Positions 45,926 through 48,829 of a stretch of DNA of 64,000 nucleotides are shown piece after piece. Source of the DNA: an uncultured Candidatus Saccharibacteria bacterium (GTDB lineage Bacteria; Patescibacteriota; Minisyncoccia; Phycocordibacterales; UBA1550); NCBI GenBank assembly GCA_964457625.1, contig CAYWES010000001.1:17725-81724 (forward strand), read 5' to 3'. Under the pieces are notes generated by a model, which saw only the letters and a list, made by a program, of their open reading frames with translations, was not told where the DNA came from and did no database searches. Within the stretch, counting starts at the first letter, position 1, and each line of letters begins with the position of its first letter. Position numbers and translations under genes: made by a program.

Positions 45926-48829
45926 ATGAAAGCATACGACCACAAGGATCTTGAGGGAAAATGGCAAAAAATCTGGGAGGAGACGGGAGTGTATCGCACG
46001 GATGATTCTTCTGAAAAACCAAAACAATTTATTCTCGATATGTTCCCGTATCCATCAGGAGAGGGTCTTCATGTGGGGCATCCTAAGGGATATATTGCGA
46101 CTGACATCTATGCACGCATGAAGCGTATGAGCGGGTTTAATGTACTCCATCCCATGGGGTGGGATGCGTTTGGTCTCCCCGCGGAACAGTTTGCGATTAA
46201 GCACAAAGTACATCCTCGTGTGGCGGTAGAAAAAAATGTTGCTCGCTACAAAGAGCAACTCTCTGTTATTGGTCTTGATTATGATTGGGCACGCGAGATA
46301 AATACGACAGATCCTGCCTTTTATAAGTGGACGCAGTGGATTTTTTTGAAACTGTTGGAAAAAGGTCTTGCCTATGAGTCATATGAACCGATTAACTGGT
46401 GCCCCACGTGTCAAACGGGTCTTGCTAACGAAGATCTTGATGGAGGGAAGTGTGAGCGATGTGATACTCCCGTCGAGAAAAAGCCCATGCGACAATGGGT
46501 ACTCAAAATTACGGAGTACGCAGACCGCATGCTCAAAGACCTTGATCTCCTTAATTGGCCGGACTCTATCAAGGAAGCCCAACGAAATTGGATTGGGAGG
46601 AGTGAAGGAGCGGAAATAGATTTCAATTTGGTATTCAAATTGCATCCAAAACATAACGATTGGCGCGACCCAAAAGACGAAAAACCTGCGCATATTACGG
46701 TATTCACCACGCGTCCCGATACGCTTTTTGGTGCGACATATCTGGTGCTTGCCCCTGAACATCCTTGGGTAGAGGCTTTGTGGAATACCGAACACGACGA
46801 CAGTGTGGGTAACAAAAGTGAAATAGAGGCATATGTGAAGCATGCCAGGGAAAAGACCGATATAGAACGTGCTGACGCGACGAAAGAAAAAACGGGTGTA
46901 AACGTTGAAGGAGTTGTTGCTCTTAATCCCGTGACGAAAGAAGAGATTCCAATATTTGTTGCGGATTATGTGCTTGGAGGGTACGGTACGGGTGCGGTGA
47001 TGGCTGTCCCGGCACATGACGAGCGAGACTTTCTTTTTGCTCAGAAATTTAGCCTGCCTTTCAGGGAGGTTGTCGTGCCTCATAGGGTTGATTATAAAAA
47101 TCCCCCCGTATCAGAAAAAGAAGTTGTTACACGAAAGAATATTCATGGTCTCGTGCGTAATCCAAAAACAGGCAAGATACTTTGTCTCAAGTGGAAAGAA
47201 CATCCTTGGACAACCCTTGTGGTGGGAGGAGTAGAGGATGGTGAGGATATTATTGAAGCGGCGCGGAGAGAAATTCTAGAAGAGACGGGATATGCACACC
47301 TCAGTGAGGGTCGCATCTTGGGAGGAGAAGTACGTGCCGACTACTTTGCAGCACACAAAGATCAAAATAGAATCGCGTACACTAGTCTTGTTGCATTTGA
47401 TCTTCTTGATGAAGAACAGCAAGACATCTCAGCGGACGAACAGAGTAAACATGAAGTCGTTTGGCTTGATGAGAAGGACGTCACAGTGGAATTGATGACC
47501 CACGCAGAAATGGACATCTGGCTTGAAAGAATGAATGGCGCGACGGGGGCATACACTCATTCAGGTGTTCTTGTGCATTCCGCACAATTTAATGGCAAAA
47601 GTTCTGAAGAGGCAAAAAAAGAGATTACAGAGTTCGCAGGTGGTCGTTGGGTGACAAAGTATCGTCTCAAGGAGTGGGTGTTTTCACGTCAGCGCTACTG
47701 GGGTGAGCCTATCCCGGTTATTCATTGTCCGAAGGATGGTGTTGTTCCCGTTCCCGAGAAGGAACTTCCCGTGCTCCTACCTGATGTGACTTCGTACGAA
47801 CCCACAGGAACGGGGGAGTCACCTCTTGCGGCGATTTCAGATTGGGTCAACACGACATGTCCGCAATGTGGTGGTCCGGGCACGCGCGAGACCAATACGA
47901 TGCCTCAGTGGGCGGGATCATCGTGGTATTACCTTCGTTTCATTGACCCAGAAAATAATGAGGCACTCATTGATCCGAAAAAAGAACATATATGGGATCC
48001 AGTTGACCTTTATGTGGGAGGCGATCATGCGGTGCGCCATCTTATCTACGCGCGTTTTTGGCATAAGTTTTTGTTTGACATAGATGTAGTCCACACTCTT
48101 GAGCCGTTTATGAGACTTGAGTTTCTCGGTTTTATTCTTGCTGAAGATGGTCGTAAAATGAGCAAGCGATGGGGAAATGTCATTAATCCCGATGATGTGG
48201 TAAAAACCTATGGTGCTGACACGCTCCGTCTCTATGAAATGTTCATGGGACCCTTTGAGCAAACTATCGCCTGGAATACCGAGAGTATCATTGGACCACG
48301 AAGGTTCCTTGAGCGTGTATGGCGTTTACGAGAGAATGTTTCATCTTCGGTAAAAGATACCGAAACTCTCGAGACGATTCTTCATAAAACAATCAAAAAA
48401 GTAACGGATGATATTGAAGGGTTTGCCTTTAATACCGCGATTTCTTCGCTCATGGTGCTTTCGAATGAAATGGAGCGTGCCAAAGAATTTTCTCCCCAAG
48501 CCTACGAGACATTCCTGAAACTCCTTGCCCCCTTCGCTCCTCATATTACCGAAGAACTTTGGCATGAATTGGGGCACGAGGACTCAATCCACCTTTCTTC
48601 ATGGCCTACCTACGATCCTCAAAAATGCATCGCTACAGAGGTAACAATTGCCATTCAGATAAATGGGAAGGTCCGCGACACTCTTGTTGTGGCGGCAGAT
48701 ATATCCGAAGACGAAGTTCTCCGTATTGCCCTTGAGCGCCCTCTTGTGTCCAAATGGATGGAAGGGAAGAAGCCCGCAAAAACGATCTTTGTTCCCGGGA
48801 AACTTCTCAGTATTGTCTTAGAAAAATAA
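45926..48829 (+). CDS. leuS: leucyl-tRNA synthetase carrying an inserted Nudix-hydrolase-like domain
   Basis: HIGH (HVGHPKGY), Zn motif CPTCQT..CERC, editing-domain block [20 protein letters not shown]...[16 protein letters not shown], KMSKS (KMSKRWGN). An inserted block of about 150 aa contains the canonical Nudix box [23 protein letters not shown]. Confidence 0.9.
   Translation: [967 protein letters not shown]

Follow-up and report, generated by a model that had tools for sequence, protein, structure and literature searches.

The 64,000-nucleotide (nt) stretch of contig CAYWES010000001.1 analyzed here, from an uncultured Candidatus Saccharibacteria bacterium (hereafter the window), carries a leuS gene for a 967-amino acid (aa) bacterial-type leucyl-tRNA synthetase (LeuRS) that hosts a Nudix hydrolase module inside its CP1 editing domain. 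The gene occupies 45926..48829 (stop codon included) on the + strand, as do all of its features described below, and is a single uninterrupted open reading frame (ORF). The nested module comprises residues 384–545 (47075..47560) and has a complete Nudix box with the catalytic and metal-binding glutamates in place. Judging from its sequence, its relatives, and the genes and domains that accompany them, we consider it reasonably likely that LeuRS carries, in this module, an active “house-cleaning” hydrolase of nucleotide polyphosphates, with a substrate of the (deoxy)nucleoside triphosphate ((d)NTP) or dinucleoside polyphosphate (NpnN) type.

Apart from the insert, the LeuRS is intact. It matched the NCBIfam model TIGR00396 (leuS_bact) with 972.5 bits (cutoff 548.4) in two stretches that flank the insert, and a Pfam scan returned tRNA-synt_1, the LeuRS editing domain, NUDIX (PF00293), and Anticodon_1. 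The HIGH signature reads HVGH (aa 49–52, 46070..46081). The KMSKS signature reads KMSKR (aa 744–748) and directly follows an AEDGR linker (aa 739–743, both together at 48140..48169). In an alignment of 108 LeuRS orthologues with 38–68% identity to the window protein, His-49 and His-52 of the former and Lys-747 of the latter are invariant. The N-terminal part of the CP1 editing domain (aa 220–383, 46583..47074) was delimited by its Pfam match (PF13603) and by motifs, and the protein carries the threonine-rich editing motif TTRPDT (aa 261–266) and a 12-residue GTG...HD motif (aa 354–365) that retains the AHD aspartate. The anticodon-binding domain (PF08264, E = 2.5e-25) spans aa 817–929 (48374..48712). 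An earlier note on this DNA had described all catalytic and editing motifs of the LeuRS as intact, in agreement with these assignments.

Residues 580–637 of Thermus thermophilus LeuRS, the leucine-specific domain (LSD), have no counterpart in the window protein by pairwise alignment; the AEDGR linker stands in their place. This does not disqualify the LeuRS identity, because the LSD is also absent from the LeuRSs of Bacillus subtilis and Mycoplasma mobile (PMC3643597). In the latter, a GKDG tetrapeptide functionally stands in for the LSD (PMC3643597), and the AEDGR linker recalls this GKDG linker.

The AlphaFold2 model of the full-length LeuRS reached a predicted local distance difference test score (pLDDT) of 91.2 and a predicted template modeling score (pTM) of 0.83. 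Its best Foldseek match was chain A of T. thermophilus LeuRS (PDB code 2bte; E = 6.4e-85, target-normalized TM-score 0.82, 38% identity). Domain order, fold, HIGH and KMSKS signatures, threonine-rich motif, and AHD aspartate are common to the window protein and the bacterial-type LeuRSs of T. thermophilus (1h3n/2bte) and Escherichia coli (4aq7/4arc). Three features set it apart from T. thermophilus LeuRS, namely the 162-residue Nudix insert in CP1 at a position where the latter has a 12-residue loop, an additional variable loop at a second position in the protein (site A, see below), and the AEDGR linker instead of the LSD. Leucylation and editing are predicted functions of the host enzyme.

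The insert of 162 aa matched PF00293 over aa 405–529 (47138–47512) with E = 1.4e-12 and 48.2 bits (cutoff 21.1), covering model positions 5–127 of 134. Its 23-residue Nudix box (aa 434–456, 47225..47293), with the catalytic and metal-binding residues Glu-449, Glu-452, and Glu-453, follows the canonical pattern GX5EX7REUXEEXGU and is the sole match to this pattern in a six-frame translation of the whole window. The in-frame canonical Nudix domain reported in the earlier note is thus borne out by the continuous ORF, the Pfam match, and the perfect box.

Its position had to be revised. The earlier note had the insert follow the end of CP1 and precede the catalytic half of the enzyme; instead, it lies inside CP1. 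The editing-domain match (aa 220–395, E = 3.5e-56) breaks off at model position 151 of 185 (positions 1–151), but when residues 384–545 were removed in silico, the match became continuous across the joint (positions 1–182 of 185, core residues 220–407). The remainder of the editing domain that completes the model corresponds to aa 546–569 (47561..47632). Accordingly, the Nudix module is nested within CP1, with ∼24 residues of the model still to follow it. In the alignment to T. thermophilus LeuRS (1h3n), residue 383 pairs with residue 362 of the latter and residue 541 with residue 375, so that ∼157 residues replace a loop of ∼12. Of the span given earlier, 47090–47560 (aa 389–545), the end stands and the start moves upstream to nt 47075 (aa 384). 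CP1 rotates by 12–19 degrees between the aminoacylation and the editing state (PMC3643597), and a module nested in it must therefore move along with it. The GC content of the insert (0.45–0.46) resembles that of its flanks and is uniform over insert and flanks together (0.45–0.48).

The insert is a lineage-wide trait and not a peculiarity of one genome. A full-length search found PF00293 in all 120 of the closest LeuRS relatives listed (49–65% identity), whose named sources are Parcubacteria/Paceibacterota metagenome-assembled genomes (MAGs). With a pattern built from a 10-sequence alignment, we scanned one genome per GTDB species and found relatives of the insert encoded in at least 344 species representatives, of which 80 loci were retained for inspection. 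Informative titles among the carriers name Paceibacterota, Taylor-, Kaiser-, Yonath-, Wildermuth-, Moran-, and Uhrbacteria, and “Patescibacteria group,” although the taxonomic labels of many carrier MAG records are unreliable and some bear the name Saccharibacteria or Gammaproteobacteria. Of the 80 retained loci, 72 have a complete ORF, and in all 72 the Nudix module lies within one stop-to-stop frame of 943–1301 codons. Moreover, the identical 967-residue protein, with like neighbors, was assembled from a second, independent read set. These observations uphold the earlier view of a domain acquisition and not a fusion artefact, and the survey of orthologues that the note had proposed confirmed the insert throughout. 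A word-based homology search with the insert alone returned 2 proteins only; the full-length search and an exhaustive HMMER search reached further.

The module is as well conserved as its host. Among the 108 aligned LeuRSs, the insert is present in all (gap fraction 0.01), and its majority fraction of 0.58–0.60 is on a par with the C-terminal half of LeuRS (0.60). Invariant positions are Arg-403, Gly-434, Gly-435, Glu-449, Glu-453, and Lys-478; at least 90% conserved are Trp-428, Glu-440, Ala-445, Arg-448, Glu-452, Thr-454, Gly-455, Ala-475, His-477, Asn-481, Arg-482, Leu-493, Glu-505, and Trp-513. Several of these are specific to the subfamily (the invariant Arg-403 and Lys-478, together with Trp-428, His-477, Asn-481, Arg-482, Glu-505, and Trp-513). 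The strict Nudix box occurs in 113 of 120 orthologues, with minor deviations in the remainder. In a larger set of 200 modules from the same insertion site (site B), the box glutamates E16, E19, and E20 are conserved at 0.99, 0.99, and 1.0, respectively, and the complete catalytic box is kept in 176. The earlier note had named a lack of conservation of the box glutamates in orthologous insertions as grounds for a degenerate domain; in both sets they are conserved (invariant or at least 90% in the 108 LeuRSs, 99–100% in the 200 modules). Taken together with its distribution, this conservation indicates that the insert is of ancient origin, is lineage-wide in Patescibacteria/Paceibacteria, and is under purifying selection.

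When modeled alone, the insert adopts the Nudix α/β/α fold with a pLDDT of 95.3 and a pTM of 0.88, which argues for an autonomous domain; in the full-length model, the Nudix blocks have pLDDT values of 92–96. The module is covered in full, N-terminal leader included, by stand-alone homologues of 156–199 aa, and a complete Nudix protein was therefore inserted. Conserved features of the module are this leader (P-x-x-x-D-x-x-NPP...R) and a FAAHKxxNR motif. By these features, the module is a bona fide Nudix enzyme of a distinct subfamily and is probably active.

Longer relatives of 1100–1558 aa revealed three insertion sites in the clade. The first, site A, separates the N-terminal catalytic half from the first strands of CP1; the second, site B, holds the Nudix module of the window protein; and the third is located past CP1, ahead of KMSKS or of the anticodon-binding domain. 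In the window LeuRS, site A is represented by a low-confidence loop only (aa 233–256, 46622..46693), which shows as a 15-residue gap against T. thermophilus LeuRS, has a pLDDT of 58 at aa 241–250, and has a gap fraction of 0.43 in the alignment. The in-frame guests found in LeuRSs of the clade comprise additional Nudix modules, Ser_hydrolase/α/β-hydrolase, HAD_2, Ham1/ITPase, and DUF559 (Vsr-like endonuclease fold). They reside mostly at site A and in some cases between CP1 and the anticodon-binding domain, and they extend the host to as much as 1558 aa (eight examples). Among the 108 full-length LeuRSs, 85 carry a module of the canonical type at site B only, as in the window, 9 carry a tandem pair at site A in addition to the site B module, and 14 show other combinations.

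The modules fall into two variants. The canonical variant, T1, to which the window module belongs, keeps E7 and R15 of the box, whereas T2 has a “Q/A” box (GGxExGQT...[A/M/T/K]-E-I-x-EETGY) that has lost the structural glutamate and the arginine. The three metal-binding glutamates are essentially invariant in both. Retention of E7 and R15 amounts to 94–95% among site B copies, ∼55–59% among site A copies, and 20–40% among the prolyl-tRNA synthetase (ProRS) copies described below. T1 copies at site A are closest to T1 copies at site B; T2 copies cluster together whatever their location. T2 is the second member of the tandem T1–T2 pairs in LeuRS (four examples among others) and also occurs as solo proteins (four examples). 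The T2 module may act as a pseudo-heterodimer partner.

An exhaustive HMMER search with the insert against 1.84 billion representatives retrieved 372 proteins at E ≤ 1e-3. Among the best 150 of these 372, 109 are LeuRSs, either full-length or fragments (99 with one Nudix copy, 8 with two, and 2 with three), 34 are short proteins without similarity to LeuRS, and 7 are other proteins. The module is thus a member of a small Nudix subfamily that occurs mostly within or next to genes for aminoacyl-tRNA synthetases (aaRSs). In one such association, a solo Nudix protein of 163 aa has its gene 2 nt upstream of one for a LeuRS with an embedded copy of its own (JGI sample 3300071358, 53-kb contig). The synteny of this contig (YchF, DUF5671, [Nudix], LeuRS, Sigma70_r4/HARE-HTH, and DUF8128) is that of the window, and the order YchF, DUF5671, LeuRS, Sigma70_r4/HARE-HTH, DUF8128, YceG, and MnmA is common to both. 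No solo Nudix gene is present in the 73-nt gap upstream of leuS in the window (45853–45925). As a side observation on this region, the 433-residue ORF downstream of the Sigma70_r4/HARE-HTH gene in the window (50068–51369) had no Pfam match, and its syntenic counterpart in the relative is flagged as DUF8128 (PF26449).

Further solo paralogues were found between the genes for arginyl-tRNA synthetase and isoleucyl-tRNA synthetase (IleRS), with dUTPase, thymidylate kinase, two other Nudix genes, and NTPase_I-T nearby, and 4 nt downstream of Fpg/MutM. The IleRS-like class I synthetase next to the former (1167 aa; tRNA-synt_1, Anticodon_1, and DUF5915) itself embeds a histidine phosphatase domain, PF00300 (His_Phos_1; 7386–10889 in locus L081 and 7387–10890 in locus L082).

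The same Nudix subfamily is also embedded in class II ProRS, between the anticodon-binding and C-terminal domains (locus L088, 3720–5744; five ProRS clusters in all). The box arginine is absent from 4 of the 5 ProRS copies. The nearest relatives of these proteins, of ∼480–490 aa and in several cases labeled as DPANN archaea (Woesearchaeota/Nanoarchaeota), have no insert, which indicates an independent capture by ProRS. One ProRS-Nudix gene lies near another Nudix gene, an AAA_18 kinase, and MazG.

Of the curated NCBIfam Nudix equivalogs covered (RppH, NudB, NudI, NudE, ADP-ribose diphosphatase, YtkD, and MutT1), none was approached by the insert alone; the best score was that of RppH (21.9 bits, cutoff 116), followed by NudB (20.4, cutoff 103), NudI (20.4, cutoff 95), NudE (19.0, cutoff 169), ADP-ribose diphosphatase (17.4, cutoff 248), and YtkD (15.7, cutoff 154). 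We therefore dropped a substrate assignment from curated families. The closest single-domain MutT-like Nudix protein is 2azw from Enterococcus faecalis (UniProt Q836H1), with an identity to the module of only 18%. In contrast to this free-standing protein, the module is embedded in another enzyme and has its own conserved leader and FAAHKxxNR motif. The diadenosine polyphosphate (ApnA) hydrolases, including those for diadenosine tetraphosphate (Ap4A), are likewise free-standing (lupin 1f3y/1jkn, Aquifex 3i7u, T. thermophilus Ndx1 1vc8, and human NUDT2 4ijx), unlike the module. In sequence and fold, the module is no closer to the solved ApnA hydrolases than to NTPases, RppH, ADP-ribose hydrolases, or diphosphoinositol polyphosphate phosphohydrolases. 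A conserved tyrosine ∼16–18 residues downstream of the Nudix box would be expected of an ApnA hydrolase; Tyr-473 of the module lies 17 residues past Tyr-456 and is 70–90% conserved among the orthologues.

The genome behind the window is patescibacterial, of the Paceibacteria/Parcubacteria type within the candidate phyla radiation (CPR). We propose that a complete MutT-like Nudix pyrophosphohydrolase module was spliced into a surface loop of CP1 in a single-chain LeuRS, where it would fold independently and act as a catalytically active, autonomous second enzyme riding on LeuRS. Its substrate would be of the nucleoside tri- or polyphosphate type. Damaged or noncanonical (d)NTPs are candidates, and so is Ap4A or another dinucleoside polyphosphate that arises from side reactions of aaRSs. 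In a minimal genome, the host would ensure constitutive and stoichiometric expression, and it may also bring the module close to ATP and adenylate chemistry; leucylation and editing would proceed as in an ordinary LeuRS, with the Nudix module swinging along with CP1. The Ham1/ITPase and HAD co-guests, together with Fpg, dUTPase, MazG, NTPase_I-T, and nucleotide kinases as neighbors of the paralogues, favor nucleotide-pool sanitation and hence a nucleoside tri- or polyphosphate as substrate. Ap4A or another nucleotide is plausible. Aminoacyl-adenylates contain an acyl-phosphate and not a pyrophosphate bond and are not typical Nudix substrates.

Several points weigh against this assignment. The neighborhood evidence is limited to few paralogue loci. 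A solo copy adjoins leuS in none of the 80 GTDB loci, so that the adjacency in JGI sample 3300071358 is not general, and a second in-frame copy occurs in just 3 of these loci. No threshold of a functional Nudix family was reached, and the substrate is thus not readable from homology. Finally, the subfamily was captured repeatedly, by two unrelated aaRSs, and has members next to aaRS genes, which may reflect a specific coupling to aminoacylation chemistry and not passive hitch-hiking.

Such a coupling is the best surviving alternative, although we regard it as unlikely. The Nudix module could be a built-in hydrolase for Ap4A, diadenosine triphosphate, and other NpnN, a sanitizer of ATP analogues at the source of adenylation, or a degrader of a nucleotide signal that tunes charging. 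Its capture into two unrelated synthetases and the operonic adjacency to aaRS genes would fit this role, but Ap4A hydrolases are no closer to the module than many other Nudix classes, the module reached no threshold of a functional family, and no trait specific to Ap4A hydrolases emerged. Furthermore, the Ham1, HAD, serine hydrolase, and DUF559 guests and the Fpg, dUTPase, and MazG neighbors suit general house-cleaning over Ap4A, and the ProRS-Nudix combination is rare (5 clusters) and has mostly lost the box arginine. Extended to the whole subfamily, the same idea would describe an unrecognized class of nucleotide hydrolases integrated into aaRSs. The class would consist of a specialized Nudix subfamily that was recruited repeatedly (at two sites and in one to three copies in LeuRS, in class II ProRS, and co-transcribed with aaRS genes) and works in cis on Ap4A/NpnN, on noncanonical adenylate or ATP species, or on a nucleotide signal that gates charging. 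We offer this as speculation with a low probability. If true, CPR synthetases would possess a third, nucleotide-level site for quality control or signaling, and the Ham1, HAD, serine hydrolase, and histidine phosphatase guests of LeuRS and IleRS would be variations on one theme.

It is improbable that the module acts on RNA, either as an RppH- or decapping-type enzyme (on 5′-triphosphates or on Np4N or NAD caps) or directed at tRNA ends, brought there by the tRNA-binding LeuRS. The matches to RppH-like families that would suggest this are subthreshold, with scores 4–5 times below the RppH cutoffs, and reflect mainly the generic Nudix box; the neighborhoods in nucleotide metabolism and the Ham1/HAD co-guests do not point to RNA. 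Mature tRNA carries a 5′-monophosphate, which also counts against this possibility. Very improbable is a noncatalytic module, i.e. an appendage with a structural, tRNA-binding, or ligand-sensing role through which CP1 would modulate editing or aminoacylation, in analogy to the Nudix-fold regulators NrtR and AraR. Mere binding would not need the complete box or the key glutamates that the site B modules preserve, and all three glutamates are kept even in the “Q/A” variants. An artefact (a frameshift, a chimeric assembly, an unrecognized intein, or a miscalled fusion of two genes), for which the sole ground is that the window probably derives from a MAG, has next to no probability given the continuous frame, the uniform GC content, the nested architecture in all complete loci of different species, the independently assembled identical protein, the clean split of the editing model, and the lack of any Hint/intein match in the Pfam scan of the LeuRS. 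We ruled out an intein on this last ground and because the Nudix fold accounts for the entire insert; frameshift, misassembly, and gene fusion were ruled out by the frame, the GC content, the 72 loci, and the second assembly. A house-cleaning Nudix hydrolase carried by LeuRS remains our preferred interpretation.

Chimeras of aaRSs with other enzymes are already recognized in curated annotation, as NF040702 (isoleucine--tRNA ligase, N-acetyltransferase domain-containing) is listed as a family. It likewise represents a class Ia synthetase with an unrelated enzymatic domain, but its guest is of the GNAT type, whereas the Nudix guest here is nested in the editing domain, and the window protein scored 72 bits against its cutoff of 1999. 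Free-standing hydrolases associated with aaRSs, such as YbaK/ProX, AlaX, and d-Tyr-tRNA deacylase, cleave aminoacyl-ester bonds and have unrelated folds. The module shares with them that a hydrolase is tied functionally or physically to an aaRS; unlike them, it belongs to a class that cleaves pyrophosphate bonds, and nothing here points to the hydrolysis of aminoacyl-tRNA. To our knowledge, catalytic guests nested in the editing domain of an aaRS are very unusual in bacteria.

The sequences of these proteins are already known, with plain leucine--tRNA ligase annotation in public database entries, and the architecture appears to be uncharacterized, as the earlier note had supposed. A full-text literature search, with most subscription journals outside its reach, turned up neither a LeuRS-Nudix nor another aaRS-Nudix architecture, and a 2017 review of the Nudix clan nowhere mentions aaRSs (term search of the full text, 178,000 characters).

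Few enzymes in biology are as highly conserved as aaRSs. In LeuRS, a Nudix guest with retained catalytic residues has persisted in hundreds of species from a major uncultivated radiation whose genomes are minimal, and an unrelated synthetase carries such a guest as well. It fits a wider pattern in which CPR synthetases host hydrolases and is of interest to specialists of both aaRSs and CPR bacteria. If the Nudix module merely hitch-hikes, genome-reduced CPR bacteria would consolidate house-cleaning enzymes on essential scaffolds; if it is linked to adenylate or Ap4A chemistry, translational quality control or alarmone turnover would gain a new layer. At two sites, CP1 accommodates inserts of 160 to more than 500 aa, a property of use in aaRS engineering.

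Other translation genes in the window include an alanyl-tRNA synthetase (54971–56758) of 595 aa only, with a tRNA-synt_2c core and, at its very end, a tRNA_SAD motif, which appears to be without the usual C-terminal (C-Ala) region. Four genes for tRNA-Leu isoacceptors (CAG, TAG, TAA, and CAA) are located at 3767–3851, 4680–4762, 5768–5849, and 21856–21937 in the same 64 kb as leuS, and three of the four are grouped with genes for tRNA-Lys and tRNA-Cys inside ∼2.3 kb.

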